Shown here: piece by piece, positions 1-35,900 of the stretch
Numbering within the stretch: position 1 is the first letter of the stretch
Layout: every line of letters begins with the position of its first letter
IMG/VR virus record: IMGVR_UViG_2778261175_000003
Source: a virus
Lineage: Duplodnaviria > Heunggongvirae > Uroviricota > Caudoviricetes
Direction: 5' to 3' (one strand)
DNA: 37,236 nt
Notes under the pieces: generated by a model
Told to the model about the DNA's origin: nothing
The model's database searches: none
What the model saw: the letters and a program-made list of their open reading frames with translations, nothing else
Made by a program: the position numbers and the translations under genes

Positions 1-141
1 TTACTGCTTACACTGTAAGAACGCCGCAAACTCCGCTCCCCAGAATCTCATCCGTATTTCGCACAGCGAACCGTGCAACATCCAGATGATGAGGATTGCC
101 GTCACGCAGAACGTGATGGCCGTAAGCGATTTTTGCGACAT
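1..141 (-). CDS. Hok/Gef/PndA-family type I toxin, 46 aa (MSQKSLTAITFCVTAILIIWMLHGSLCEIRMRFWGAEFAAFLQCKQ)
   Basis: Hand translation of the minus strand from ATG (rc of 139-141) to TAA (rc of 1-3). One N-terminal TM helix then SLCEIR...E.AAFL.CK, matching the conserved C-terminal motif of Hok and PndA as recalled. Too short for the ORF track. Confidence 0.65.
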   Translation of the reverse strand: MSQKSLTAITFCVTAILIIWMLHGSLCEIRMRFWGAEFAAFLQCKQ

Positions 142-271
142 AGCACTTGCTCCTTTTCCGGAGAGGCGCTAACCTTTCACTTGTCAAGGTAATGCGGTTA
201 GGGCCTCGGTTAAACAGAAACGTTTTCCGGGGCCTTTCCACATCTGGCCTTCGGGTATTCCCTCCGACCAT
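8..271 (-). CDS. Mok-like overlapping leader frame (87 codons) spanning the hok-like ORF in another frame
   Basis: ORF track entry; starts upstream of and overlaps the toxin ORF in a different frame, as mok does for hok in plasmid R1. No protein similarity recognised; probably regulatory rather than a functional protein. Confidence 0.3.
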   Translation of the reverse strand: MVGGNTRRPDVERPRKTFLFNRGPNRITLTSERLAPLRKRSKCYVAKIAYGHHVLRDGNPHHLDVARFAVRNTDEILGSGVCGVLTV

Positions 272-331
272 CAGCCGAAAGGCACCCGCGCGTAATCTAT
301 CTCTTTTTTGTTACTCCGGCAATTCTGCCTG

Positions 332-592
332 TTAATTTTGAGGTAAGGGCAAACTCATCTGATTGTTTCCTTTGTGTGAAGCTGGCAGTTCATGCCACGG
401 GATACCTTCTGAAGAGTGAGCGCCGGAGGCGTGTTTCGATGTGAATTTATGGAAAGCTTCCAGTGTTGAGAAGCATACACCGCATTCTAGGTTGTTACAT
501 TGGTAATACTTTTGCCGCACGGTGTTTGAATCATTTTCCGGACGACTGGTGCGGATTCGGGCAGATGCGCCACAAAGCGGACAACGGAACAT
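332..592 (-). CDS. ogr: Ogr/Delta-family zinc-finger late transcription activator
   Basis: N-terminus MFRCPLCGASARIRTS...YYQCNNLEC matches the P2 Ogr C4 zinc-finger pattern (CPLC...C..C); location next to D as in P2. Confidence 0.85.
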   Translation of the reverse strand: MFRCPLCGASARIRTSRPENDSNTVRQKYYQCNNLECGVCFSTLEAFHKFTSKHASGAHSSEGIPWHELPASHKGNNQMSLPLPQN

Positions 593-802
593 AGCGACCT
601 CCCTTACTGTGGTGCTTCCGCTATTCTAAGTTGTACTGATACAGATTCCAATTAACAGCTTGTCTTGTGTGAAAAGTGGAAGTTCACAATTGTGATAGCC
701 ATTACTAACGTTGTGATGTATTAGTCAACGGGAAACAAGGCATCTGTAACATATCTATGGATATGTTATATTATTGTTGCCATAGGAAAAACCCGCTTTA
801 AA
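593..802. promoter_or_regulatory. AT-rich divergent intergenic region between ogr and the hxs cassette with two palindromes (TCACAATTGTGA at 684-695; ACATATC-N4-GATATGT at 749-766)
   Basis: Perfect inverted repeats read directly from the sequence; the second lies about 37 bp upstream of the first hxs start. Function as operator or promoter is inferred. Confidence 0.3.
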
Positions 803-1117
803 GTGGTTGCTGATCATGAATATTTGTATTGGAAGATAATTGCAATGAGCGAAAGAGTGTTTGAGAAAGAACTATATTCTGAATGGGTTATACGCAATAG
901 TCTATATTGGATGACTCCGCTTACTCGATGGAAACTCCATGAAGACGTTTCCCACTGGATAATCTCTTTTGAAAACGATAATCCCAAATTCCTTTATGAA
1001 TTCGATAGGCTGCTTAATGATTACTCTTTGCGAGAAAAGCTACAGCATAAAACAGGGGCGTTGAGAGACTCTATTGTCCATAAAGTGCTTCGCAGTGTTG
1101 ATGAGAGGCTTTCATAA
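803..1117 (+). CDS. hxsD: Small protein at the head of the Hxs cassette, HxsD-like by position
   Basis: ORF track (GTG start at 803; alternative ATG at 845). Stop overlaps the start of the next gene (TAATGG). Assignment by operon context only. Confidence 0.45.
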   Translation: MVADHEYLYWKIIAMSERVFEKELYSEWVIRNSLYWMTPLTRWKLHEDVSHWIISFENDNPKFLYEFDRLLNDYSLREKLQHKTGALRDSIVHKVLRSVDERLS

Positions 1118-2505
1118 TGGAATTGATGCCATTTAATTTTGACAGATTGCCTAATGGACAGGTGTTTATAAGCAACCTTGCAGGTTTTCATCATTTCATT
1201 GGTGAGCAAGACCTTATTGATCTTTCTGATGAGCGAATTAGTTCGGAGCAATCAAACGTGCTAGAAAGTAAGCTTTTCATAACCAGTGAAAGCTCATCTG
1301 CTATAACTCCCTATGCTTTAAGTTCTGCTTTTGCAAAACGATTGATGAATGAACTGGCTGTCAGGCCAATTTTCATGATTGTACCCACATTACGTTGTGA
1401 CCATACATGCAAGTATTGCCAGGTTAGTAGAGCTTCTGTTAATGCCTCAGGTTACGACCTAAATCCTGAGCTCATCCCCGATATTATTTCGGCTATTAAA
1501 AAACTATCAACGCCACCTTACAAAATAGAGATACAGGGTGGGGAGCCTCTCTTGCGGTTTGATTTAATTCAGAACATCTATGATCAATGTGCTGAAACGC
1601 TGGGAAGAACCAATTTTGAGATGGTGGTGGCATCAAGTCTGTCTGTCTTGAATGAGGATATGATTGAATGGTCGAGAGACCGGAACATAACGTTCTCTGT
1701 GTCGCTTGATGGTGAGGAAGTTGTTCACAACAGTAATCGAATTCTTGGTCGTGGGCTTGCGTACAGTAGAACAGTGTCAGGGGTAGAGGCTATCAAACAC
1801 TCTTTAGGTGCTGGCCGCGTTGCAACGGTTACTACAGTTACTAAAGAGCTTATCAGACGTCCTGAATCGATTGTTCAGGCTCACTTGTCTCTTGGGCTCA
1901 AGGACATGTTTATCCGACCTGTTAGTCCCTATGGGTTTGCACAAAAAGCTTCTTTCACCTTTTCTATGGACGAATACTTCAGCTTCTATGCCTCGTTGAT
2001 AGATGAAATCCTTAAGATTAATAATGAAGGGATAAGGGTTGTGGAACATTCGGCCTCCATTCATCTGAAAAGGATCTTCAATCCCGGTTTTAGTGGCTAT
2101 GCGGATTTAAAGTCTCCAAGTGGAGTCGTGCTTAACAGTATTCTTTTCAATTATGACGGTCGAGTATATGGTAGCGATGAGAGCCGTATGTTGCAGAAGG
2201 TGAATCCTGAAACGGAGTTCAGTGCGGGTGAAGTTAAGACGCTATCATTTTCTGATAGTCCTTACTATAACGCAGTATTGACTTCATCGTTCAATTTTGC
2301 TCTGCCAGGTTGTGATACATGTGCATATCAACCATTTTGTGGTTCAGATCCATGCCAGAACATAAGTGTACAGGGTGAGCCTGTCGGCGATAGGAGTCGT
2401 TCAACGTTTTGTCAATATCACAAGGGGATGTTCAGGTATCTGATGAACTGCATCTCAGAGGGTGGTTCGAAGGCTGAGATGCTAAAAGGATGGGCATATG
2501 TCTGA
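1117..2505 (+). CDS. hxsB: Radical SAM/SPASM-type maturase, HxsB-like (462 aa)
   Basis: CxxxCxxC motif (CDHTCKYC) about 95 aa from the N-terminus, C-terminal Cys cluster (CDTCAYQPFCGSDPCQ) typical of SPASM/twitch domains; GGEPLL motif; translationally coupled to neighbours. B versus C naming is by size and order, from memory of the TIGRFAMs Hxs families. Confidence 0.75.
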   Translation: MELMPFNFDRLPNGQVFISNLAGFHHFIGEQDLIDLSDERISSEQSNVLESKLFITSESSSAITPYALSSAFAKRLMNELAVRPIFMIVPTLRCDHTCKYCQVSRASVNASGYDLNPELIPDIISAIKKLSTPPYKIEIQGGEPLLRFDLIQNIYDQCAETLGRTNFEMVVASSLSVLNEDMIEWSRDRNITFSVSLDGEEVVHNSNRILGRGLAYSRTVSGVEAIKHSLGAGRVATVTTVTKELIRRPESIVQAHLSLGLKDMFIRPVSPYGFAQKASFTFSMDEYFSFYASLIDEILKINNEGIRVVEHSASIHLKRIFNPGFSGYADLKSPSGVVLNSILFNYDGRVYGSDESRMLQKVNPETEFSAGEVKTLSFSDSPYYNAVLTSSFNFALPGCDTCAYQPFCGSDPCQNISVQGEPVGDRSRSTFCQYHKGMFRYLMNCISEGGSKAEMLKGWAYV

Positions 2506-3610
2506 GGTTATCAGGAACGATATCTTTCATTTTGCTTCTACAGAGAACGTGCCCACGGGGTTCTATCGGTTATGCAAACAAAAACCAGTGAACCCTTTAT
2601 TCTTTTTGCCCAATTTGCTAGTAGTTGCTGAGGGCAATAATGATGCCATTCCACCATGCTTTGATTTCTCTGTTATTAGCACTGAATTATTTGAGTCAAT
2701 TGAAGATGGAGATATTGGGATAATCAACAATGGCAATATGATACGCGTTATTCTGTCACGCAAAGCCAACCATAATACTGTCTTAGTTACGGAACGCTGC
2801 AATAACTTGTGTCTGTTTTGTTCGCAGCCACCAAAGAAAATAAATGATGACTGGCTACTTACCCAATCAGCTCTTGCTATAGCTTCATTTGGCTTGAACG
2901 GAGTTGTTGGGGTCAGCGGTGGTGAACCTTTGCTATATGGGGATGACTTCCTTCACTTCATTGATTTTATCATCGAGAATTCACCAGATACTGCTTTACA
3001 TGTTTTAACAAACGGACGCAAATTTGCTGATACCAACTTTACACAGGAAATGGCAAAGCGAAGCAAAAAGATCAAAATCACCTTTGGTATCCCGCTCTAC
3101 TCATCAAGACCACTTGTGCATGATCATCTGGTAGGGAGTGATGGCGCATTTAATGAAACGGTTAAAGGGTTAATCAATGCAGGAAACTTGGGGATTAATA
3201 TCGAACTTAGAGTTATTCCTACACTGGCTAACTATACCGAATTGGATGATATCGTAGAATTCGCTGGCCGTGTGTTCTCCAACATCAATCAGATTTCCCT
3301 TATGGGGTTGGAGCCTATCGGTTGGGCACGAAAAAACTGGTCCACCATCTTCATTGATCACAGTAGTTATAGTGAGAAAATAATCTCTGCCATAGACGCT
3401 GCATACAGGTCAGGCATACCTCTGACAATTTTTAATTATCCTTTGTGTTATCTTCCTGAAAGGGCTAGGGAGCTTGCTGTTCAGTCGATCTCTGATTGGA
3501 AAAATTACTATCCAAAAGAATGTGATGAATGTACTCAGAAGCCTTCCTGTGCTGGCTATTTCAGTTCCTCAAAAGGCCGTTTTCATCAATCACCGAGACC
3601 AATTTTATGA
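2498..3610 (+). CDS. hxsC: Second radical SAM/SPASM-type maturase, HxsC-like (370 aa)
   Basis: CxxxCxxC (CNNLCLFC), GGEPLL motif, C-terminal Cys cluster (CDECTQKPSC). Start ATGTCTGA overlaps the hxsB stop; its stop overlaps the hxsA start (ATGA). Confidence 0.75.
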   Translation: MSEVIRNDIFHFASTENVPTGFYRLCKQKPVNPLFFLPNLLVVAEGNNDAIPPCFDFSVISTELFESIEDGDIGIINNGNMIRVILSRKANHNTVLVTERCNNLCLFCSQPPKKINDDWLLTQSALAIASFGLNGVVGVSGGEPLLYGDDFLHFIDFIIENSPDTALHVLTNGRKFADTNFTQEMAKRSKKIKITFGIPLYSSRPLVHDHLVGSDGAFNETVKGLINAGNLGINIELRVIPTLANYTELDDIVEFAGRVFSNINQISLMGLEPIGWARKNWSTIFIDHSSYSEKIISAIDAAYRSGIPLTIFNYPLCYLPERARELAVQSISDWKNYYPKECDECTQKPSCAGYFSSSKGRFHQSPRPIL

Positions 3611-4242
3611 AAAAGTTTAATTTTGCTGCTCTACTTCCGGGATTTTTGGCTCTCAACAATTCTGTATGGGCAAGCGATTCATCTACAGGAGCGAGTGATT
3701 TACCTGGTATGACTCTTAATGAGCATGATTTAGTGATAGCTCCACTTAACACGGAAGTCCCATTTTATATCGCAGGGCATCGAAGCCATAGTTCTCATAG
3801 GAGCCATAGCTCTCATAGATCCTCATCAGGTGGTGGATACTATGGTGGAAGTACCCCCTATTATCCAAAAACATACAGCTCACCAAGTTCATCTGGTTCT
3901 TCAAGTTCAGGTGCAAGTTCCTCATCGTCCTCTTCCTCGGTGCGTGCACTTCGTTCTAACGATAATAATAGAACCACTAACACGAGTTCTGTTGGAACTT
4001 CAGAGGTTAACCGTACGAGTAATGGGCTTGCTTCTGATGCAGAGAAACGTAAGCGATTGATTATGCGAGTTCAGTTCGCATTGCTGGACAGGGGATTTTA
4101 TAACGGAAATATTGACGGCATAATGGGGCCATCCACAAGGCTGTCTGTGAAAAATTACCGCATTGCGAATGGATTACCGATTCCTGCAACTGAAACACTC
4201 GACACACAATTGTTAAATTCTTTGAATATATTAGCTCGCTAA
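3607..4242 (+). CDS. hxsA: His-Xaa-Ser repeat protein HxsA-like: signal peptide, (HxS)x5, Ser-rich linker, C-terminal peptidoglycan-binding-like domain
   Basis: Start taken at MKKFNFAALLPGFLALNNSVWA (ATG 3607) rather than the track start 3529. Contains HRSHSSHRSHSSHRS, a poly-Ser tract and a C-terminal segment (RVQFALLDRGFYNGNIDGIMGPSTRLSVKNYRIANGLP) resembling PG_binding_1 domains. Confidence 0.75.
   Translation: MKKFNFAALLPGFLALNNSVWASDSSTGASDLPGMTLNEHDLVIAPLNTEVPFYIAGHRSHSSHRSHSSHRSSSGGGYYGGSTPYYPKTYSSPSSSGSSSSGASSSSSSSSVRALRSNDNNRTTNTSSVGTSEVNRTSNGLASDAEKRKRLIMRVQFALLDRGFYNGNIDGIMGPSTRLSVKNYRIANGLPIPATETLDTQLLNSLNILAR
3778..3822 (+). repeat. Coding tandem repeat encoding five His-Xaa-Ser units
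   Basis: DNA reads cat-cga-agc-cat-agt-tct-cat-agg-agc-cat-agc-tct-cat-aga-tcc; position derived from codon arithmetic in the hxsA frame. Confidence 0.8.
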
Positions 4243-4406
4243 ATCTCAGTGAGGTATAAATAAAAAGCAATAAATTATATTAGTCGCGCGTCCATTATTG
4301 GTGGGTAAGTTCAAGGACCGTCTGCTCTGTGTCAGGGGCAGATGGTCAGATAAGACTGTGCCGTTTAGCCCGCTAGTACGTGTCTGGACTAATACATTTA
4401 AGAGTC

Positions 4407-5516
4407 TCATTCTGCTATCCATTCCGGGATTTTTGCCTCAAGCTCAAGCTGTGTGGTAAAGCCGCTGTTATCAATGGTGTGCTCGGCTTTTGCAATAATC
4501 CAGTCCTGATTATCAATCTCGCTTTTAAATCCTGTTACCGTGCCATGCATTTCGGGGTAGAGTTCTGCACGCCCACGTGCCAGCGTGATGGAAAATGATG
4601 CGGCTCCGCGTTGTAGCTGCTGCCACTTTGCCGCCGCTGCGCGTCTTGCTGCCTGCTCGTTTTTAAACGTTTTGCGCATGACGTATACATTGCCGTCTGC
4701 GCCCTCCATGTAATCCCCCTCGCGGCTGCTGCTTTTCTCCTTTTTTGTTTTTTGGGCAGAACCACGTTTCGTCACGCTGACTTTTTTCTTTTTGCCATAG
4801 TCCAGGTCCAGCCAGTAAGCGCGTACCCCCGTGTACGCCTGCCGGTCTGCAATGCGGAAGTGATGGCTGTCACCGCTGCTGCGGGTGATGGCGAATGAGG
4901 GCAGCGGCTTTCCGCTGGCGCTCACCCCCTGTCCGGGCACGATGAAAAGCAGTGCGCCGTTCTTGACGGTGGCTATGGCTCCCAGCATGTCTGCCATACG
5001 CGTGAGAAACGAGATGTCACTTTCCTCCGTCTGGTCGGCGTGGTCGATTTCCACCTCTGCCAGCGAGGCGCTGATTTGCGCCTTCAGCCCGTAGCGGTAC
5101 GCGATGGCAGAAACAACCTGCCCCACCGTCACGTCATGCCAGGACACTTCACGCTTCACGTTGAACTCCTGCCGGAAGTCTGCGCTGCTGGCCGTGATGG
5201 TGAGCCTGTCCGGTGGTCCCTCATGTGTCACCTCGTCAACGATGAAGGTTCCTTTGTCCATCAGTGCCTCACCTTTCCAGCCCAGCGCCAGACCCAGCGT
5301 CTGTCCGCGCTTCGGGAGCTGCACGCTGCCGTCGCAGTCGTCAATCGTGAGGGTTAACTGGTCTGCCTCAAATCCCCGGTTGTCGGTCATCGCCAGCGAG
5401 ATGACCCGTCGGGTCAGCGCCGCGTTTTCCGTGCCCTTAACCGTGATGGAAAAATCAGGGATCTTCACGCACTCTGACAGACCGTTCAGGTATCCGCTTA
5501 CGTCCGCAGGGTTCAT
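4407..5516 (-). CDS. D: Tail protein D (late control gene D family)
   Basis: Protein resembles P2 gpD. Start placed at MNPADVSG (ATG at 5514-5516, GGAGA RBS upstream) rather than the track GTG at 5699. Confidence 0.85.
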   Translation of the reverse strand: MNPADVSGYLNGLSECVKIPDFSITVKGTENAALTRRVISLAMTDNRGFEADQLTLTIDDCDGSVQLPKRGQTLGLALGWKGEALMDKGTFIVDEVTHEGPPDRLTITASSADFRQEFNVKREVSWHDVTVGQVVSAIAYRYGLKAQISASLAEVEIDHADQTEESDISFLTRMADMLGAIATVKNGALLFIVPGQGVSASGKPLPSFAITRSSGDSHHFRIADRQAYTGVRAYWLDLDYGKKKKVSVTKRGSAQKTKKEKSSSREGDYMEGADGNVYVMRKTFKNEQAARRAAAAKWQQLQRGAASFSITLARGRAELYPEMHGTVTGFKSEIDNQDWIIAKAEHTIDNSGFTTQLELEAKIPEWIAE

Positions 5517-5588
5517 CGCAATTTCTCCGTCTGTGTCTTCGTACGGCGAAATACTCCCACGCGCACGGAGGCGCTGTAATCCTGCGTA

Positions 5589-5614
5589 TGTTGTCGGAGA
5601 GCGGCGAGAACAGG
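5589..5614 (+). promoter_or_regulatory. Candidate late-promoter activator element TGTTGTCGGAGAGCGGCGAGAACAGG upstream of FI
   Basis: Near-identical 26-nt element recurs upstream of P (24183-24208); each lies about 60-80 bp upstream of a late-gene start and carries TGT...ACA ends reminiscent of the Ogr-dependent P2 late promoter motif. Spacing differs from the canonical TGT-N12-ACA. Confidence 0.4.
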
Positions 5615-5678
5615 CAGCGCGTGAATGCGGGGCTGTTTTTCGGGAGGATGTCGCCACACAAAACACCAGGAGGTGCTC

Positions 5679-6860
5679 ATGAGTGAAACACGCTTTCACG
5701 GTGCACGCGTCAAAGAAAACACCGACCTCGTGACCGCGATTAATGACATTGATTCCAGTGTCATCGGTATCGTGGCCACGGCGGACGATGCAGACAGCGA
5801 CGCGTTCCCGTTAAACAAGCCCGTATTGATCACCCGCGTGGCGAATGTGCTGGGTAAGGCAGGCACAACAGGCACGCTGTACAAAACGCTCAAGGCGATT
5901 TCCGACCAGACCAGCCCGAAGGTTATCGTGGTGCGTGTGGCAGAAGCCGGAGAGGAAGGTGAGACACAGGATCAGCTTGTCATTGGTGGCTCGCAGGCTG
6001 ACGGCAGCTACACGGGCATGTATGCCCTGCTGGTTGCTGAACAGGACGAGAGCATTGGTTACCGCCCGCGCATTCTGGCGGCTCCCGGCCTGGATACCGA
6101 AGCAGTCACATCCGCCCTGTGCGTCATTGCGGACAAGCTCCGCGCCTTTGTGTACGCCGGATGTAACGGGTGCGACACGATGGCGGAGGCAATCACTTAC
6201 CGTGCGAAGTTCTCCGCGCGTGAGCTGATGCTGCTGTGGCCTGACTTCATTGCCTACAACCCGGTGAGCGGAAATAACGAAACATTTCCGGCAGCGGCGT
6301 ATGCGTGCGGGTTGCGTGCGCGGATTGACAGTGAACAGGGCTGGCACAAGTCACTGTCCAACGTGGCGCTGAAAAATGTTCTCGGTATGTCGCAGCAGGT
6401 GTTCTGGTCGTTGCAGGCCGAAGACAGTGATGCGAACAACCTGAACAACAAGGAAATCACCACGATTATTCGCCGTAACGGCTTCCGCTTCTGGGGGAAC
6501 CGTACTGCCGAAACCAGCGACTACATCTTTGAGGTGTACACGCGCACAGCGCAGATTCTGGCAGATACCATCGCTGAGGCGCAGTTCGAAACCATTGACG
6601 AACCGCTGACCCCGGCGAACGTGAAGGACGTGATTAGCGCCATCCGCGCAAAACTCAACGCCCTGGTGACGGCCGGGAAACTCATCGGTGCGGAGTGCTG
6701 GTATGACGTGCTGGACAACGGCACGACGGATTTGCGTCAGGGGCGCGTGCGCATCCGTTATAAGTACACGCCAGTGCCGCCGATGGAAGATCTGACGCTG
6801 TATCAGACCTTCACGGATGAGTATTTCGACTCCGCTTTTGCAACGCTGGGAGGTGCGTAA
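5679..6860 (+). CDS. FI: Contractile tail sheath protein
   Basis: Strong similarity to P2 gpFI (e.g. FPLNKPVLIT, ELMLLWPDF, RRNGFRFWGNRT, YKYTPVPPMEDLTL). Start at ATG 5679 with AGGAGG RBS. Confidence 0.9.
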   Translation: MSETRFHGARVKENTDLVTAINDIDSSVIGIVATADDADSDAFPLNKPVLITRVANVLGKAGTTGTLYKTLKAISDQTSPKVIVVRVAEAGEEGETQDQLVIGGSQADGSYTGMYALLVAEQDESIGYRPRILAAPGLDTEAVTSALCVIADKLRAFVYAGCNGCDTMAEAITYRAKFSARELMLLWPDFIAYNPVSGNNETFPAAAYACGLRARIDSEQGWHKSLSNVALKNVLGMSQQVFWSLQAEDSDANNLNNKEITTIIRRNGFRFWGNRTAETSDYIFEVYTRTAQILADTIAEAQFETIDEPLTPANVKDVISAIRAKLNALVTAGKLIGAECWYDVLDNGTTDLRQGRVRIRYKYTPVPPMEDLTLYQTFTDEYFDSAFATLGGA

Positions 6861-7376
6861 ATGGCTGTACCACGTTACGTTCGCCAGTTCACGCTGTTTG
6901 TGAACGGCAAAAACAAAATCGGCACGGTGACAGGCATCACTCTGCCCAAGCTGACCCGAAAAACCGAAGCCTATCGCGGTGGCGGGATGCTGGGTGCGGT
7001 GCATATTGACCTCGGACTGGATGACGGCGCACTGGATGCCTCGTTCACCACCGGTGGGGTTGAAAAAGAGCTGCTCCAGGAATACGCCACTGACATTAAC
7101 GAAGTGGCGCTGCGCTTTGTGGGTGAGCTGTTCACCGATGGTGAGGAAAGTCAGCTCCTTGAGGTGGAGATGCGCGGACGCATCACGGAAATCGACCGTG
7201 GCGAAACCAAACAGGGCGACACCACGCAGTACACCTTCGCCGTCAAAAACACCTACTACAAGGAGTCGGTGGATGACAGCGATGTGACAGAAATCGACCT
7301 GCTGAACTTCATCTACAAAAAAGACGGCCAGAACGTCTTTGGTGACCGCGTGAGTTCGGCGCTCGGTCTGAACTGA
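6861..7376 (+). CDS. FII: Tail tube protein
   Basis: Position directly after FI, size (171 aa) and similarity to P2 gpFII. Confidence 0.85.
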   Translation: MAVPRYVRQFTLFVNGKNKIGTVTGITLPKLTRKTEAYRGGGMLGAVHIDLGLDDGALDASFTTGGVEKELLQEYATDINEVALRFVGELFTDGEESQLLEVEMRGRITEIDRGETKQGDTTQYTFAVKNTYYKESVDDSDVTEIDLLNFIYKKDGQNVFGDRVSSALGLN

Positions 7377-7422
7377 CAGCATTAACAGGGCGGCACATTG
7401 TGCCGCCACAGGAGAAAGAAAA

Positions 7423-7839
7423 ATGGCAGCAAAGAAAGATGACATCATGAACAGCGAAATCGTCGCAGGTGACACCACCACTGAAAACATCGATGTGGCA
7501 GAGGAAAACACTGCGGATAACGCAGAAGCCGCAGAGGAAAAAACGGGGGTGAAGTTATCCTGCCCGGTGGTGCGTGGCGAACGCGTTATTGACTACGTGG
7601 AGATTGGCGAGGAAATCCGTCAGGCAGGCTCGTTGCGCGGGCTGTCTCTGATTGAGGTGCTGAACCTCAAAACGGATCCGATGATGACGCTGCTTTCGCG
7701 CGTGACCGCACCACGCCTGAAACTGGCAGAAATTCAGTCACTGTCCACCGGTGATTTCGTGGCGCTGGCGACTATGGCTGCGAATTTTTTTGCTCCCACG
7801 GAGTCTGCGAAACCGTCCGTGGCGGTGATGGAAGCGTAA
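7423..7839 (+). CDS. E: Tail assembly chaperone E
   Basis: Position between FII and the tape measure gene; acidic N-terminus; ends shortly after a T7 slippery run. Confidence 0.8.
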   Translation: MAAKKDDIMNSEIVAGDTTTENIDVAEENTADNAEAAEEKTGVKLSCPVVRGERVIDYVEIGEEIRQAGSLRGLSLIEVLNLKTDPMMTLLSRVTAPRLKLAEIQSLSTGDFVALATMAANFFAPTESAKPSVAVMEA

Positions 7840-8003
7840 TCACGCTGGCGAAGTTCGACAACGTTGAAGAACTGGTCGCTGATATAGCAGTCGTGTTTAA
7901 CTGGTCGCCCGGCGAGATATTCTCAATGCCTCTCGTCGAGGTGATGAGCTGGCGTGAGCGGGCGGCGCAACGTAGCGGAGTCCGCAACAGTGAAATCCCT
8001 TGA
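7423..8003 (+). CDS. E+E' fusion produced by programmed -1 frameshift at T_TTT_TTT (7785-7791)
   Basis: Hand translation of the -1 frame from 7791 gives an open 70-codon extension (..ITLAKFDNVEELVADIAVVFNWSPGEIFSMPLVEVMSWRERAAQRSG..) ending at TGA 8001-8003 and overlapping the T start, as in P2 E/E'. Confidence 0.7.
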
Positions 8004-11000
8004 TATTCGTGTCAGCTTTGGCGCAATTGACCGGCTGACACGCCCGACCGAAAACGCCCGCCGTCAGGTGGGCGCTCTCACTGAATCCCTTCAGAAGACG
8101 CAGAACAACATACAGGCGCTCGACAGACAGTCGAAGGTGTTCGATCGTGCCGCCGGAAATCTCAGTAAATACCGCGAACAGATTGCCCGCGCGGAGCAGA
8201 GGCTCGCCGGGCTGCGAAAGGCAGAGCAGGACGGTAACACTCTCTCCGAAAAGCAGCGGGAGATGATGACGGCGCTGTCTGCACGTCTTGAGCGCCTGAA
8301 CGAGCTGCGCACGCGCGAGCGCGAAAAACTCCAGGCGGCGGCAGGCGAAATGCGCAAACACGGCATTCTGCTTTCCGGCAGCAGCCGCACCATCGAAAGT
8401 GCCGTTCGCCGTACACAGCAGTACAACGAGCAGCTCGAGCGCGAACGGCAGGCACTGGCTCGCGTGACGCAGGCACAGAGCCGCTATGAGGCCGCGAAGG
8501 CACAGGCGGAAAAACTGCGCAACACAGGGGCTGTGGCGATGGCGGCGGGTACAGGCGGCCTGTATGCGGCGCAGCGCATGATGGTTCCGGCGATGGAGTC
8601 CGAACAGCACGGCGCGGTCATTGCTGCCGGTTCAGGGGAAGCCCCACAGGATGGCGCACGTTACACCCACATCATCCGTAACATACAGGCTGACAGTCTC
8701 GCTGATTTTGCCGGTGCTGCGGAGGCTGTGAGTGCGGTACGCAGTACGCTCGGCGCGCTGGGCGACACCGGCGACCGGGAACTGGAGCGCATCAGCCGTC
8801 GTGCGCTGGATATGCGGACCGTCTTTGGTGTTGATGTGCCGCAGAGCATTCAGGCCGCAGCCATCATGATGAAGAACGGGCTGGCCGCCAGCAGTGACGA
8901 GGCTACTAACCTGATGACGGCAGGGATGCAGCGCATGTCCGCTGAAATGCGCGATGAACTGCCGGAAATTCTGCATGAGTATTCCACCCACTTCCGCAAC
9001 ATGGGCTTCACCGGCAGCGAGACAATGAGTCTGCTGGTTGAGATGGCAAAGCAGGGCAAGTTTGCGCTGGACAAAACCGGCGATGCCGTGAAGGAGTTCA
9101 GTATCCGTGGTTCGGATATGTCGAAATCCAGTGTTTCAGCGTATGAGACACTCGGCCTGAATGCCGAACGGGTGTCTGCTGCCATTGCTCAGGGGGGCAG
9201 TACCGCACGCCAGGCGATGCAGGTGACCGCCCGTGCACTGCTGGCCATCCGTGACCCGGCAGAGCGGGCGAACACGGCCATTGCGTTATTCGGCACCCCC
9301 GTTGAAGACCTTTCCGTTGACCAGATCCCGCAGTTCCTGAGGGCGCTGGCTGATGTTCGTGACAATCTGGGCGATGTCACCGGTGTGGCAGACCGCATGG
9401 GGCAGACGCTGCGCGGTAATCTCTCCGGCGATATTCAGGCGCTGAGTGGTGCGTTCTCAGGGCTACGCACGGACATCTTCGGTACTGTGACCGAGGATTT
9501 GCGCGGGCTGGTTCAGACGGTGAGCGCGTGGGTGACCCGGATGCGCGAATGGGTCGGAGAGCATCAGGCGCTGGTCAGAGTCCTGGTGCTGACCGGCGGG
9601 AGTGTTCTGGCGCTGTCTTCCACGTTCGGTGCGCTGTCACTGACGCTCGGGCTGATTGCGGGGCCGCTGGCAAAACTGCAACTGGGGCTGGGGCTGCTGA
9701 CGGGGGGCGGCGGCATTGGTGGTGCTGTCCGGCTTGTGTCTGCGATGGCACTGCGCCTGACGGGGCTGCCTGCGCTGTGGGGGCTGGTCACGGGGGCGGT
9801 GTCGGTACTGGGTGGCGCACTGGGGGCGCTGTTCAGTCCGGTCGGGCTGATTGTTGCCGCCCTGGTGGGCGGCGCGGTTCTGGTGTGGAAATACTGGGAT
9901 CAGATCAGCGCGTTTTTTTCCGGCTTTTTTGCCGGAGTGTGGGAGGCGCTGCAACCGCTGCGGGAAGCCTTTGCATCGCTGGCTCCGGTGTTCGGGTTGA
10001 TTGGTGACGGCATCAAAGCTGTGTGGGAGTGGTTCACCCGCCTGCTTGAACCTGCGAACGCCTCAAAAGAGACGCTCGACAAATGCACCAGTGCCGGGGA
10101 GTCGTTCGGCAAAACGCTGGGGTGGGTCATTCAGAACATTGTGCTGGGGCCGCTGATGCTGCTCCTTGATGGTCTCGGTACCGTGCTGAAGTGGCTGGGT
10201 GTCATCCCGGACGGCATCAAAAAGGCACAGAAGGAGACGCAAAAACTCCAGGTGAGCGCCGCAAAACAGGCCACACAAAAAGCGCCGGTTGCGTGGGAGT
10301 GGGATCCTGCACAGAAAAAAATGGTGCAGAAAACATGGTCGTGGTCATCAGATGCAGAGGAAAACAACGGTGACAATAAACCCGCAATACCTGCCCCTGC
10401 GGTTCCCGGAGAGGTGAAGGGAACGTCAGACAATCCGGTCAGCAAACCCGGTAGTAAATCCCCGCTGGATGAGGCATGGTTCCGGCAGGGGATACAGAAA
10501 ACCGCCAGCAACACCGGCGGGCTGCTTGAGGAAACCAAAAAACGTACTGGTCCCGGCGATATTGTTTTCAAAAACCTGCCCGGACCCGAAATCATTCACG
10601 GCGAGTGGAAAGCACCGCAGGTTATCCGGACAGTGCAGGCGGTATCGGCGGGCGGAGGACTGGCGGATGCGCTGACAACGCTCTGGCAGAAACTCACCGG
10701 AAGACAGACTGCTTCACCCGTTCCGGTCGTGAATATTCCTGCGCCAGTGGAGAGAGTGGCACGTCAGGTATCCACGCTGCCGCAGCACAACGAGGCAAAT
10801 ACAGAACTGGTTGCCGGTATTCAGCGTGTGCATGAGGCGGTGAACAGTCCGGGTGGAGAGGGCACTTTGCCTTCCCCCGTGGTTAACGTTCTGATGCCAG
10901 CAGTGAATGTTCCTGCGCCAGTGGTGAGCGTGGCCCGTCAGGTGTCCACGCTGTCACAGCCGCAGCACAACGAGGCAAATACAGAACTGGTTGCCGGTAT

Positions 11001-11454
11001 TCAGCGCGTGCATGAGGCGGTGAACAGTCCGGGGGGAGAGACGGTATCGCCTCCACCTGTGGTGAACGCTCTGATGCCAGCAGTGATTGTTCCTGCGCCA
11101 GTGGTGAGCGTGGCGCGTCAGGTATCCACGCTGCCGCAGCACAACGAGGCAAATACAGAGCTGGCTGCCGATATTCAGCGCGTGCGTGAGGCTGTAAACG
11201 GCCCGGGCGGAGATGTGGCTTTATCTGTTCCTGTTGCGGAGGTTATCCGTCCACCGCTGCGACCGGAGTCCGTCAAAAAAGAAACCGCGCCACAAACGCA
11301 GGCTGCGGCATTTTCCGGTGAAATACACGTACATCTGCACAACGTCAACACGCAGAATCCGCGTGAACTGGCAAAACTGGTTGGCGAGGCTGTCCGCGAA
11401 GAGATGCGCAGACAGGCGCGTACAGGCATGAACAGCTTCTGTGACAGGGACTAA
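7954..11454 (+). CDS. T: Tail tape measure protein
   Basis: Very long ORF after E/E' with coiled-coil N-terminus, Gly/Ala-rich hydrophobic middle and internal repeats. Track start is GTG 7954; an alternative GTG near 7990 is possible. Confidence 0.85.
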   Translation: MSGRRNVAESATVKSLDIRVSFGAIDRLTRPTENARRQVGALTESLQKTQNNIQALDRQSKVFDRAAGNLSKYREQIARAEQRLAGLRKAEQDGNTLSEKQREMMTALSARLERLNELRTREREKLQAAAGEMRKHGILLSGSSRTIESAVRRTQQYNEQLERERQALARVTQAQSRYEAAKAQAEKLRNTGAVAMAAGTGGLYAAQRMMVPAMESEQHGAVIAAGSGEAPQDGARYTHIIRNIQADSLADFAGAAEAVSAVRSTLGALGDTGDRELERISRRALDMRTVFGVDVPQSIQAAAIMMKNGLAASSDEATNLMTAGMQRMSAEMRDELPEILHEYSTHFRNMGFTGSETMSLLVEMAKQGKFALDKTGDAVKEFSIRGSDMSKSSVSAYETLGLNAERVSAAIAQGGSTARQAMQVTARALLAIRDPAERANTAIALFGTPVEDLSVDQIPQFLRALADVRDNLGDVTGVADRMGQTLRGNLSGDIQALSGAFSGLRTDIFGTVTEDLRGLVQTVSAWVTRMREWVGEHQALVRVLVLTGGSVLALSSTFGALSLTLGLIAGPLAKLQLGLGLLTGGGGIGGAVRLVSAMALRLTGLPALWGLVTGAVSVLGGALGALFSPVGLIVAALVGGAVLVWKYWDQISAFFSGFFAGVWEALQPLREAFASLAPVFGLIGDGIKAVWEWFTRLLEPANASKETLDKCTSAGESFGKTLGWVIQNIVLGPLMLLLDGLGTVLKWLGVIPDGIKKAQKETQKLQVSAAKQATQKAPVAWEWDPAQKKMVQKTWSWSSDAEENNGDNKPAIPAPAVPGEVKGTSDNPVSKPGSKSPLDEAWFRQGIQKTASNTGGLLEETKKRTGPGDIVFKNLPGPEIIHGEWKAPQVIRTVQAVSAGGGLADALTTLWQKLTGRQTASPVPVVNIPAPVERVARQVSTLPQHNEANTELVAGIQRVHEAVNSPGGEGTLPSPVVNVLMPAVNVPAPVVSVARQVSTLSQPQHNEANTELVAGIQRVHEAVNSPGGETVSPPPVVNALMPAVIVPAPVVSVARQVSTLPQHNEANTELAADIQRVREAVNGPGGDVALSVPVAEVIRPPLRPESVKKETAPQTQAAAFSGEIHVHLHNVNTQNPRELAKLVGEAVREEMRRQARTGMNSFCDRD
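10729..11220 (+). repeat. Three tandem coding repeats (about 174-180 bp, about 58-60 aa each) inside the tape measure gene
   Basis: Copies begin near 10729, 10903 and 11083; protein unit PVVN.PAPV..VARQVSTLPQHNEANTELVAGIQRVHEAVNSPGGE. Confidence 0.8.
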
Positions 11455-11467
11455 AGGAGACACAATT

Positions 11468-11926
11468 ATGATGATGATTTTTGGCATGTTTGTGTTTGAA
11501 CTGAAAACGCTGCCGCATCAACAGATTCAACAAAACAAAACGTGGCGGCATGTGAAAAATGAGCGCATTAACCGCTCTGCGGCCTGGCAGTATATCGGTG
11601 CAGGTGATGAGCAGATCACGCTGTCTGGTCAGCTGTACCCGGAAATTACCGGTGGTGAGGTGTCGCTGACACTACTGAACACCCAGGCCTACACCGGATG
11701 TCCCTGGCCGCTGATTGATGGCACGGGGCAGATTTACGGAATGTACGTGATTACGGGATTACAGACCACCCGCTCCGAGCTGGATCGTTACGGAAAGGCA
11801 AAAAAGATTGAGTTCTCCATCAGCTTTCAGCGGTGTGATGAGGATATGAGGGAGAAACTCCAGTCTGCTTCTGCGGGTGAATTACTGAACACGCTTAAAG
11901 ACAAAATGGCTGAGGCTGCATTCTGA
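11468..11926 (+). CDS. U: Tail protein U
   Basis: Similarity to P2 gpU; start at ATG 11468 preceded by AGGAG RBS (track start 11441 overlaps T). Confidence 0.8.
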   Translation: MMMIFGMFVFELKTLPHQQIQQNKTWRHVKNERINRSAAWQYIGAGDEQITLSGQLYPEITGGEVSLTLLNTQAYTGCPWPLIDGTGQIYGMYVITGLQTTRSELDRYGKAKKIEFSISFQRCDEDMREKLQSASAGELLNTLKDKMAEAAF

Positions 11927-11959: not shown

Positions 11960-12055
11960 ATGGCCTTCATGGAAAAGAAGCAAATGTTGTCAATACATTC
12001 TGACTATATATAAATCGCCTGATGATGGCAATGGTGATATTCGGGAAATAAAAAA

Positions 12056-12072
12056 GCCCTCGCAAAGAGGGC
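12056..12072 (-). terminator. Hairpin GCCCTC-GCAAA-GAGGGC preceded on plus strand by an A-run (minus-strand intrinsic terminator)
   Basis: Read directly from the sequence. Confidence 0.45.
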
Positions 12073-12245
12073 AACATGCATTGTGTGAAGATTTAATTTT
12101 TCTGGTTGCAGGGGGGATTATATTGAACTGTATTCATTTAATGCAATATTTTTAATTGTCATCATCATTGATGAAAATATTTCTTGTGTTTTTGTTGCCC
12201 TGATTACAATTTCACTCATTACTGTGTCTTTGCGGCAAAAAAAAA

Positions 12246-12262
12246 GCCCGCACGGGGCGGGC
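12246..12262 (-). terminator. Hairpin GCCCGC-ACGGG-GCGGGC preceded on plus strand by nine A (strong minus-strand intrinsic terminator)
   Basis: Read directly from the sequence. Confidence 0.55.
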
Positions 12263-12963
12263 AAGGAATGTTTGCATGTGTATAACACTGCGGGATTATA
12301 AATAAATTACGCGTTCTGTAAAATCCCCTTTGATGGAGATTCAGGCCATACCAGCGCATTATAACAATCTTCGTCCTTCACGGAAGTGAAAGTCACCTGC
12401 TGAAGTTCTTTAATGTATTCAATTCACGCAGCCAACCTTCCTTTGTCTTGATCGCTGATGGTGCCGGGCAATAACTCAGATTGCCAGATTCTGATCCTCT
12501 CTTTTGCCTCCGGCAGCAGGGGATTTCGTTGTCATTCTGCTTTAGCCTGCCACTTTTCAGGTGGCAGCACATGACGAACAATATTTTCATCATCAAATAT
12601 CCAGTTACCTGAGTCATCAGCACGTTGGTTAGCGTTAATATCAGAAGTATTAACAACACTAAAACCGACATGATTAAGTGTTGATGCCTCTCTGGTAATG
12701 GTGACAATAATATTATTTCGTTGTAAATCATTTTGATTTTATCTGGTCGAAAGGTCCCTGCATCGTTATGCCGGTTTTTATTTCCTTCAGAGGAAATATG
12801 ATTACTTTGTGCTTCTTTTTTAACACATACAGTCTGGAGTTAATGTTGCCTGTTTTATGTTCTTGAGTGCGTCATATTAATCTCTTACATATTATATCTG
12901 GTACAATTTATAGTTTTCTGAAGCTTGCCTGAAAGAATTGAGTTTCCTGCAGGCTTTCAAGGG

Positions 12964-13062
12964 GGTGATGATGATATGCGGGAGAAACTTCAGCCTGCAT
13001 CTGTGTGGGGAATCACTGAATACGCTTAAAGACAAATCGTCGTCGCTGAACGCATTCCCTTA
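12964..13062 (+). pseudogene. Degraded duplicate of the 3' end of tail gene U
   Basis: About 75 nt align at roughly 85 percent identity (by eye) with the true U 3' end at 11840-11915 (GATGA.GATATG.GGGAGAAACT.CAG.CTGC.TCTG...CTGAA.ACGCTTAAAGACAAA), with a 1-nt deletion breaking the frame. Confidence 0.6.
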
Positions 13063-13108
13063 ACCTGACGCCACCACCTCATACAGATAACGAGGTGGTA
13101 GCGTGATT

Positions 13109-26011: not shown

Positions 26012-27066
26012 TGAAAAAACAAAAACGAAAACAAACGTATTCCCGCCGGGATGACGGCGGGGATCTGGCAGATGCACTGCGTCATCAGCCATCGTTAAGC
26101 GCTTTCTCGTTTGACGGGCCTTATGATGCGCACGCGCTCGACCTGCTGGATAACGCATACTGCCTGAGTAACGGCAGGTACTACGAAACACCCGTTGACT
26201 GGTACGGGCTGGCGCGGGCATCCCGGCAGACCTCGTGGCATCAGTCGGCGCTGTACTTCAAACGAAATGCCATTCTGGGCTGCTTCATTCCGCACCGGCT
26301 GCTGTCCCGGCAGGCGTTCTCCGCCTTTGCGCTGGACTGGTTTGTCTTCGGGAATGCGTTTCTTGAACTGCGCACCAACAGGCTGGGCGGAAAACTGGAA
26401 CTGCGGCACGCACTGGCGAAGTACACCCGCCGTGGTGTGGAGCCGGATGTGTACTGGTTTGTGCAGACGGGCGAGCAGGATCACGAGTTCCGTCAGGGGC
26501 GCGTCTGTCATGTGCTGAACCCTGACATCAACCAGGAGATGTACGGAATGCCGGAATATCTCGGCGGCCTGTTGTCTGCCAGTCTGTCGCATTCGGCAGA
26601 TCGTTTTCGCAAACTCTACTATGACAACGGTTCACACGCAGGCTGCATTATTTACGTGGGAGCAGCACAGGTTGACCGCGAAAGCATGCAGGCGCTCGAA
26701 AGAGCGTTGCAGGGCGCAAGAGGCGGTGGGGCATTCAAAAACCTGCTGCTCCAGGCACCGAACGGCGGGAAGGACGGTGTGCAAATCCTGCCGTTCCAGC
26801 AGATCACCGCCCGGGATGAGTTTATGAACGTCAAGGCTGCCTCCCGCGATGATGTGCTGGCTGCTCACCGCGTACCACCACAACTGATGGGCGCAATGCC
26901 CAGCGGACAGGGGTCATTTGGTGATGTGGAGAAGGCGGCAAGAGTGTTTGCGATCAACGAACTGATGCCGGTGATGGAGGCGATGAAGCACGTTAATGAC
27001 TGGCTGGGCGAGGAGGTGATCCGCTTTAACCCTTACGCACTGCTGGATACCCCGCCCACATCCTGA
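26011..27066 (+). CDS. Q: Portal (capsid vertex) protein Q
   Basis: Similarity to P2 gpQ; coupled to P (ATGA overlap). Confidence 0.85.
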   Translation: MKKQKRKQTYSRRDDGGDLADALRHQPSLSAFSFDGPYDAHALDLLDNAYCLSNGRYYETPVDWYGLARASRQTSWHQSALYFKRNAILGCFIPHRLLSRQAFSAFALDWFVFGNAFLELRTNRLGGKLELRHALAKYTRRGVEPDVYWFVQTGEQDHEFRQGRVCHVLNPDINQEMYGMPEYLGGLLSASLSHSADRFRKLYYDNGSHAGCIIYVGAAQVDRESMQALERALQGARGGGAFKNLLLQAPNGGKDGVQILPFQQITARDEFMNVKAASRDDVLAAHRVPPQLMGAMPSGQGSFGDVEKAARVFAINELMPVMEAMKHVNDWLGEEVIRFNPYALLDTPPTS

Positions 27067-27084
27067 CGCGCTCCGCTTGTCTGC

Positions 27085-27125
27085 TGCTTCGTCGGGGCAT
27101 AAAAAATTTATGCCCCGACGAAGCA
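27085..27125. terminator. Perfect palindrome with 19-bp arms (TGCTTCGTCGGGGCATAAA / TTTATGCCCCGACGAAGCA) just downstream of Q
   Basis: Read directly; likely bidirectional terminator or structural element at the Q/cos boundary. Confidence 0.5.
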
Positions 27126-27506
27126 GCTCCGGTGTGTCACGCACCGGGCATCTCAGGGATCTACCAGGTCTGAATAACCTGTCAGCACACGCGCACCAAA
27201 GCGCATTACAGGGCATGTTATGTGTCAGCCCATATTTCATGCACAACCAATAAAACATCGCGTCAGGGGCGCAATCAGCCACATTTCTGGCGATTTCTGA
27301 GGATGCTTTCAGACCCCAAATTGCGGGCTGTTCCCCCGGCACCTGCGCGCAACAAAAACGCGTTTTTTTGTGCGCGCACGGATCCTTGACGGATCCAGCC
27401 GCCACGCGGGCCGGAAGGGCAAAAAGTCGTTCAAAAAAATTGTGCAAATTTGTGCACTATTGTGCAGCAGGGCGATGTGTGATTATCGCCCTGGTTTGTC
27501 GTGGAT
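27126..27506. other. Putative cos / packaging region (by synteny only)
   Basis: In P2 cos lies beside Q. Contains a second near-palindrome (27345-27377). The P2 cos sequence itself was not recognised. Confidence 0.25.
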
Positions 27507-35809: not shown

Positions 35810-35900
35810 GATGTGATAACCTGTTCAGTCTGTGGTTATTTGTTGCTAAAAGTCGTCTATAGGCGACTTTTAGGGTTAATTTAGTCGTCTGGAGACCACC
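35810..35900. promoter_or_regulatory. Immunity-region divergent promoter/operator with direct repeats AGTCGTCT (35851-35858, 35883-35890) and an AGTCG...CGACT inverted repeat
   Basis: Repeats read directly; position between cox and C as for P2 Pe/Pc and the C operators. Confidence 0.45.

Follow-up and report, generated by a model that had tools for sequence, protein, structure and literature searches.

A complete hxs operon as cargo between ogr and gpD of a P2-like prophage

The hxs operon and the island that carries it

The viral genome record IMGVR_UViG_2778261175_000003 of IMG/VR (37,236 nucleotides; this whole stretch is referred to as the window in the rest of the text) carries four open reading frames (ORFs) between ogr, the gene for the late-gene activator, and gpD, the gene for the baseplate hub. 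The four ORFs overlap or abut on one strand in the order D-B-C-A and all score above the NCBIfam equivalog cutoffs of their families (Table 1). The cargo of this island is a complete hxsD-B-C-A (HXS) operon. An initial annotation, made from the sequence alone, had described the island as AT-rich, as transcribed opposite to both neighbouring phage genes and as an autonomously regulated moron preceded by palindromic operators. On the orientation, the ORF and domain positions agree: the hxs genes (845-4242) lie on the plus strand, and ogr and gpD both lie on the minus strand.

Table 1. Coordinates of the features of the island and its borders in the window
Feature	Position	Strand	Basis and remarks
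ogr, late-gene activator, Ogr/Delta zinc finger	332-592	-	Pfam PF04606, E = 5e-14; left backbone
Putative ogr promoter, -10 TAGAAT (628-623), -35 TTGGAA (651-646)	623-651	-	consensus scan, 9/12 positions
Cargo island, relative to the empty-site prophage L001	634-4409		flanking homology blocks
Left hotspot frame	634-683		common to islands with other cargo, closest L049
Palindrome 1, TCACAATTGTGA, perfect, 12 bp	684-695		join of hotspot frame and imported hxs DNA
Predicted hxs promoter, -35 GTAACA (746-751), 17-nt spacer, -10 TATTAT (769-774)	746-774	+	scan; conservation
Inverted repeat TAACATATC-tatg-GATATGTTA, 9-bp arms, 4-nt spacer	747-768		overlaps -35, fills promoter spacer
Conserved 5' untranslated region hairpin CCGCUUUAAAGUGG	793-806	+	pairs form in 11/11 distinct sequences
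hxsD, 90 aa, LYW and LLNDYSLRE motifs	845-1117	+	TIGR03976, 91 bits (cutoff 50)
hxsB, radical SAM/SPASM maturase	1117-2505	+	TIGR03978, 558 bits (cutoff 370)
hxsC, radical SAM maturase	2498-3610	+	TIGR03977, 398 bits (cutoff 268)
hxsA, effector	3607-4242	+	TIGR03979, 161 bits (cutoff 122)
3' flank imported with the cassette	4243-4315		common to Hafnia and Klebsiella-plasmid copies
3' hairpin of the hotspot frame, 13-bp stem, no U-tract	4316-4347	+	fold of 4236-4415 (+): -54.5 kcal/mol, z = -3.0
Conserved gpD-proximal frame block GTCTGGACTAATACATTTAAG	4382-4402		ends in degenerate TCTAAGTTG copy
gpD, baseplate hub / late control D	4407-5699	-	Pfam PF05954, E = 2e-17; right backbone

HXS was recently reported to be a broad anti-phage defence that needs all four hxs genes, in which HxsB, HxsC and HxsD mature HxsA, and periplasmic HxsA blocks the entry of phage DNA (Li et al. 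2026, PMC13128918). The operon of the window resembles the published system in its four genes, in their D-B-C-A order and in the residue numbers of its cysteines. HxsB has cysteines at 94, 98 and 101 (CxxxCxxC) and a second cluster at 399 and 402, HxsC has them at 101, 105 and 108 (CxxxCxxC) and at 342 and 345, and Li et al. mutated cysteines with precisely these numbers; the Pfam family Radical_SAM matches both proteins. HxsA shares the hydrophobic N-terminal leader (MKKFNFAALLPGFLALNNSVWA, judged by eye to be a signal peptide), the five H-x-S repeats (residues 58-72) and a peptidoglycan-binding-like C-terminus (PG_binding_1, E = 1.5e-4, 22.3 bits, just below the cutoff of 23). HxsD shares the LYW and LLNDYxLRE motifs, found here as LYW at residue 20 and LLNDYSLRE at residue 56 and invariant or nearly so in 49 homologues. 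The two systems differ in that the paper numbers the HxsD motifs two residues higher than the 90-aa annotation used here, and in that the copy described here lies inside a P2-like prophage whereas 77% of the E. coli (Escherichia coli) HXS operons were found outside predicted prophages (PMC13128918).

Two alternative translation signals upstream of hxsD were considered and rejected. As the hxsD start, ATG 845 was preferred to GTG 803 on the grounds of the family model, of RefSeq annotations and of the way conservation is distributed upstream, and a seven-codon reading frame at 816-839 is not kept in relatives. The 2023 models of PADLOC, which contain no HXS model, gave only weak radical-SAM matches to pVip.

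The AT-richness that the initial annotation had judged by eye is borne out by calculation. The island has a GC content of 41.6%, compared to 55.2% in the remaining window, and in sliding 400-bp windows the GC fraction is 0.37-0.45 over 600-4400 and 0.55-0.66 over 4600-11000. Codon usage deviates in the same way: GC content at third codon positions (GC3) is 38% in the hxs genes and 66% in the backbone, with per-gene values of 0.33-0.40 for the four hxs genes and 0.57-0.76 for 14 backbone genes, ogr (0.45) being the sole low outlier of the backbone. The codon-usage distance to the backbone is 1.7-1.8 for hxsB and hxsC, about twice the 0.6-1.3 found among backbone genes of similar length. The AT-richness is a property of the hxs cassette family, because Enterobacterales hxs cassettes mostly have 42-46% GC regardless of their surroundings; the DNA adjoining them is often still AT-richer.

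The limits of the island are set by a related E. coli prophage with an empty site (L001), whose ogr is 97.7% identical to that of the window and in which 42 bp separate the ogr start from the gpD stop codon. Window positions 1-633 match L001 1198-1831 and positions 4410-5389 match L001 1842-2818; because L001 holds only 10 bp between the two blocks, we place the island at about 634 to 4409. The limits of 593 and 4406 given in the initial annotation had to be moved, 593-633 being the native ogr leader that is shared with the empty-site prophage. In a set of 5426 complete E. coli genomes, the ogr and gpD flanks have matches in about 1290 records; about 1200 genomes have the flanks only, and 47 have the entire ogr-hxs-gpD arrangement (47 of the 153 E. 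coli genomes with an hxsD match). This presence or absence between adjacent conserved phage genes supports the view that the island is foreign cargo. Other strains hold a DUF3800 protein in the slot, and further alternative cargos are a SEC-C motif protein annotated as YecA-family, a 340-aa protein with a weak HEPN-like match and a 465-aa protein of unassigned function. Four of the five cargos in E. coli prophages have the orientation of hxs, away from ogr. Sequenced phages of two Peduoviridae genera, Gemsvirus and Xuanwuvirus, also have the slot filled.

Phage morons are extra genes with their own promoter and terminator that are expressed from the prophage. The island resembles them in its presence or absence between adjacent conserved genes, its deviant composition, its own promoter-like element and its orientation opposite to its neighbours; it differs from them in being a four-gene operon instead of a single gene, in having no canonical intrinsic terminator and in that its expression in the lysogen is predicted. 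It also shares with the defence hotspots of P2-like phages (Rousset et al. 2022, PMC9122126; NAR 2026, PMC13586616) a variable, AT-rich and mostly defence-like cargo between core genes, alternative cargos and empty sites. The hotspots named in the main text of these two papers are gpA-gpQ, a site downstream of gpL in the tail genes, int-att and int-primase, and neither main text mentions ogr or gpD; the ogr-gpD slot may or may not be among the catalogued P2-like hotspots. A further difference is that the ends of the island form a conserved frame, which consists of the ogr -35 element, a hairpin and a direct repeat, TCTAAGTTG.

Relatives of the cassette, its predicted promoter and the reading of the island

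We recovered hxs loci from other species (34) and from viral contigs (8). Only near-identical copies are positioned between ogr and gpD, all 34 other-species loci being situated elsewhere. Cassettes of about 90% identity are present in Enterobacter, Brenneria, Raoultella, Klebsiella oxytoca, Kluyvera, Buttiauxella and Serratia. Their homology with the window begins at 741-744, which is 2-5 nt ahead of the -35 hexamer of the predicted hxs promoter, and ends at 4243-4245, at the hxsA stop codon. Copies from Hafnia (L006) and from a Klebsiella plasmid (L050) share slightly more, from 671/678 to about 4315, and such extended copies are present on more than 300 (about 310) Klebsiella plasmids. Precise limits can now be given for both units, 634-4409 for the island and 744-4244 for the mobile cassette.

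The closest extended relatives, including the DNA around 684-695, are on large conjugative IncF plasmids of Klebsiella. The L050 copy is situated immediately downstream of an IS110-family transposase and has a klebsidin lasso-peptide cluster nearby. Another plasmid, pTW14425_123.7k (L051), carries at about 3001-3047 an orphan 47-bp fragment that is 98% identical to window positions 720-766. Amid remnants of insertion sequences (IS), this fragment is broken within the right arm of the 747-768 repeat, and it looks like a relic of an hxs promoter destroyed by an IS insertion.

The first DNA of the unit common to other genera is the segment 746-774. Over nine divergent loci its invariant bases are TGTAACAT (745-752), TG (764-765) and TAT..T (769-774), and they fit GTAACA-17-TATTAT, a conserved predicted promoter of the sigma-70 type. 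Its place at the left edge of the shared unit makes the idea of a moron with a promoter of its own a reasonable one. A second candidate, TTGCCA-16-TAAAGT (777-804), was rejected for want of conservation in its -35 and because its -10 falls within the hairpin described next.

About 12 nt into the predicted 5' untranslated region (5'UTR) lies an element that the initial annotation did not mention, 793-806 (CCGCTTTAAAGTGG), which is a perfect 14-bp palindrome in most relatives. Double changes from C:G to U:A are found at two separate pairs, in the Klebsiella plasmid copy and in Serratia, and wobble pairing (G·U or U·G) is seen in the window, in Hafnia and in Serratia oryzae. Wobble pairs are tolerated, and the element therefore points to an RNA hairpin and not to a protein-binding site in DNA, a reading that we hold with moderate confidence, the covariation sample being small and its sequences related. 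The distant cassettes of the E. coli B19 type do not keep the hairpin. RNAalifold also proposes a helix between 808-818 and the start-codon region, with slight covariation. A search of Rfam gave nothing on the island, its only match in the window being the sub-threshold sok at 128-287 described below. The conserved promoter and 5'UTR hairpin are targets for expression studies.

We consider it highly probable that 634-4409 is an HXS cargo island in a variable ogr-gpD slot of a P2-like (Peduoviridae) prophage, with its own promoter and a role in protection against superinfection. The cassette, together with short flanks (about 671/684 to 4315), would have come from the pool of hxs cassettes of about 42% GC that circulate on Klebsiella plasmids and Enterobacterales genomic islands. 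From the sequence and the published system (PMC13128918) we infer that the operon is transcribed in the lysogen, most likely from the sigma-70-type promoter at 746-774, which would diverge from the ogr promoter and yield a transcript that starts with the hairpin at 793-806. By homology with the system of Li et al. (2026), HxsB, HxsC and HxsD would then mature HxsA, and periplasmic HxsA would stop incoming phage DNA and so protect the lysogen from superinfection. Of the two palindromic elements, 747-768 is embedded in the predicted promoter, over the -35 and the spacer, and 684-695 sits at the recombination join. HXS operons are already published, and this one adds an example of a familiar system at a familiar type of location, which makes it largely ordinary. 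As a defence that blocks phage DNA entry, HXS travels here as prophage cargo, and a P2-like lysogen would thereby gain broad superinfection exclusion.

Several points weigh against this reading. The hxs promoter agrees with the consensus at 9 of 12 positions, and such matches are no commoner here than in shuffled sequence; the start site and the transcript are predictions. A scan found no intrinsic terminator after hxsA. The evidence for defence is the work of others on the operon of E. coli MEM, whose expression was described as being from its endogenous promoter (PMC13128918), and it would extend to the operon of the window by homology. Finally, two strong dyads within 252 bp are improbable by chance (0.15% of shuffles), one of them, 747-768, sits exactly where a repressor would block RNA polymerase, between -35 and -10, and the Klebsiella plasmid copy retains 8 of the 11 pairs of this repeat.

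Dyads upstream of hxsD

Two perfect palindromes, 684-695 and 749-766, had been proposed as operators in the initial annotation. The first is indeed perfect over 12 bp, whereas the second is the inner part of the interrupted repeat 747-768. Such dyads are unusual: the whole window holds only 4 perfect palindromes of at least 12 bp and only 7 distinct inverted repeats with arms of at least 9 bp. Of 2000 dinucleotide-shuffled versions of 593-844, 7.7% had a 12-bp palindrome, 0.85% an inverted repeat such as 747-768 and 0.15% both, in a test run post hoc on a region picked because of its dyads. For the most part, the palindromes are not conserved in homologous islands, and we found no candidate regulator; the operator proposal is not supported.

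A regulatory role for the dyads in the form of a lineage-specific operator at 747-768 is unlikely. In such a role, a dimeric repressor of the host or of another origin would bind between -35 and -10 and keep HXS very low until a signal arrives. This would account for the perfect 9+4+9 dyad and its rarity in shuffles, for its overlap with -35 and its abutment on -10 (an overlap with the core promoter that 684-695 does not have), for the recurrence of the outer AACA/TGTT bases in divergent cassettes and the pairs retained on the Klebsiella plasmid, and for the observation that HxsB, HxsC and HxsD expressed under the native promoter are beneath western-blot detection (PMC13128918). However, those outer bases are the only ones widely kept, they coincide with promoter elements, and promoter function alone (the -35 hexamer and the conserved TG) can explain them. 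Most of the cassettes of about 90% identity have a promoter spacer that differs in sequence and is shorter by 1 nt. In a test that shuffled the spacer interiors of 13 promoters, the inner symmetry had p = 0.02 in the window, p = 0.06 in the Klebsiella plasmid copy and p = 0.09-0.76 in the other eleven; it is thus not above the shuffled expectation in 11 of the 13 and not enriched in homologous promoters, where 684-695 is imperfect or absent. The perfect symmetry of 747-768 is specific to the lineage of the window.

The search for a cognate regulator likewise argues against an operator. Pfam found no DNA-binding domain in HxsA-D. HxsD was considered as an autoregulator and rejected: its predicted structure (predicted local distance difference test score, pLDDT, 94.6) has a beta-alpha-beta-beta-long-helix fold, with neither a helix-turn-helix (HTH) nor a ribbon-helix-helix (RHH), and its best match in the PDB (E = 0.02; designed proteins and KH-like folds) is not significant. 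A scan of the window gave no further copies of the 747-768 or 684-695 motifs, and the repeats of the immunity region at 35.5-35.9 kb (AGTCGTCT; inverted repeat 35846-35873) resemble neither palindrome. An informal comparison by eye with the sites of CRP, FNR, LexA, TyrR, Fur, PhoP, IHF and HipB gave no convincing match.

The repeat 747-768 can also be read in an 11-6-11 format, CTGTAACATAT-CTATGG-ATATGTTATAT, which would make it a dif-like Xer recombination site at the mobile boundary of the cassette. Its right arm agrees at 9 of 11 positions with TTATGTTAAAT, the XerD arm of E. coli, and its left arm coincides with the left end (741-744) of the conserved cassette. We nevertheless give this reading almost no credence: the left arm agrees at only 4 of 11 positions with the XerC arm of dif, most relatives would have a central region of 5 nt, no partner site is present at the hxsA end, and the upstream breakpoints vary between contexts.

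Palindrome 684-695 lies 51 bp upstream of the hxs -35 and outside the cassettes of about 90% identity, whose homology begins at 741-744. The segment that contains it is the least conserved, with 75-78% identity compared to 88-92% in the coding sequence. This DNA is found only in the two extended relatives, where the Klebsiella plasmid has TCACAATTGGTGA and Hafnia has TCACTGTTGGTGA, and the perfect form in the window is due to a 1-nt difference from both. It stands at the changeover between DNA shared with L049, an island with different cargo (634-683), and DNA shared with the Klebsiella and Hafnia copies (from 671/678).

That position, about 33 bp beyond the -35 that the island supplies to ogr, would suit a regulatory site of the divergent ogr promoter (about 73 bp upstream of its predicted start) or a site at which cargo is swapped, and L049 has another small dyad, TTGAACTTTCAA, at the aligned position. 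Either function is very improbable, given that 12-bp palindromes arise in 7.7% of shuffles, that the perfect form comes from one nucleotide in a poorly conserved segment and that no comparable dyad is present in the three remaining cargo variants. None of the factor sites compared matched 684-695, and the spacing is wrong for CRP. Ogr-dependent late promoters of P2 have a TGT-N12-ACA dyad centred near -55; none is present in 593-845, and the window has a total of 4 compared to 9.7 expected by chance.

We lean towards the view that both dyads are incidental, arising from AT-rich intergenic DNA and recombination joins, and have no function beyond that of the promoter elements they overlap. Neither is conserved as such in relatives, no cognate regulator was found, and scans of IMG/VR with both palindromes returned, beyond hxs prophages, only unrelated chance matches inside coding sequence. 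The low joint probability in shuffles speaks against this view, though in a region chosen for its dyads. The eye-catching palindromes are not the conserved elements here, which calls for caution.

The frame of the slot and other features of the prophage

All occupied variants of the slot share their ends. On the ogr side the island ends in GATTCCAACTrAC, which on the minus strand places TTGGAA 17 nt upstream of TAGAAT. The putative ogr promoter straddles the island border, with its -10 in backbone DNA and its -35 supplied by the conserved island end of about 30 bp, and GTTGGAATC-17-TAGAAT is preserved in five of five occupied-site variants (L046-L049 and the window). The empty site carries ATAGCGGAA at the same position, a poor -35 located within the 3' end of gpD. 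The TTGGAA-17-TAGAAT arrangement of occupied sites is predicted to be a good ogr promoter. A literature search for the ogr promoter of P2 gave nothing usable.

On the gpD side, all occupied variants have a GC-rich hairpin followed by GTCTGnACTAATACATyTAAG. In the window the G·U pairs of this hairpin (4316-4347) are possible solely on the plus strand, and L047-L049, which have other cargo, form hairpins with altered stems at the equivalent position; it is possibly the 3' end or a stabiliser of cargo transcripts. The short direct repeat TCTAAGTTG is found at both junctions of the slot (625-633 and 4397-4405) and as a single copy in the empty site of L001. It is perfect in L049 and degenerate on the gpD side of the window, and it suggests that cargo is gained and lost through recombination between the repeats.

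These features allow a more ambitious reading that we regard as tentative and rather doubtful, in which the ogr-gpD slot is a framed exchange site and HXS expression is regulated through the promoter dyad and the covarying 5'UTR hairpin instead of being simply constitutive. Every occupied variant would keep the island-borne ogr -35, the 3' hairpin and the flanking repeat, so that cargo could be swapped or lost without disabling late-gene control. The dyad and the hairpin, perhaps together with a helix over the start codon, would hold the maturases at a very low level.

In a variant of this prophage in E. coli W13-16 (L063), an IS66-family element, ISCro1, is inserted in gpD just past the island; this prophage is probably defective while its hxs operon is intact. 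The gpD and ogr genes of the window (gpD at 4407-5699) lie on the strand opposite to the sheath, tube, tape-measure and gpU genes (5600-11926). On the P2 map gpD, ogr and these four genes all run in one direction. Late read-through from gpD would cross the whole hxs operon antisense before reaching ogr.

Positions 1-287, next to ogr, hold a toxin-antitoxin module of the hok/sok type. A 46-aa Hok-like ORF (1-141, minus strand) matches NCBIfam HokA under the cutoff, and a sok-like RNA (128-287, minus strand) reaches 47 bits (E = 1e-8), below the gathering score of 59. A Hok-like gene stands beside ogr in every related prophage examined. A second AT-rich patch (12000-13100, GC 0.39) between gpU and the tail-fibre genes contains a 112-aa ORF (12393-12731, minus strand) that matches no Pfam family; the patch may be a further cargo slot. 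At 27083-27127, just past the end of an ORF at 27066, is the longest perfect inverted repeat of the window (GCTGCTTCGTCGGGGCATAAAAAATTTATGCCCCGACGAAGCAGC, with 21-bp arms and a 3-nt centre), which resembles a bidirectional terminator.

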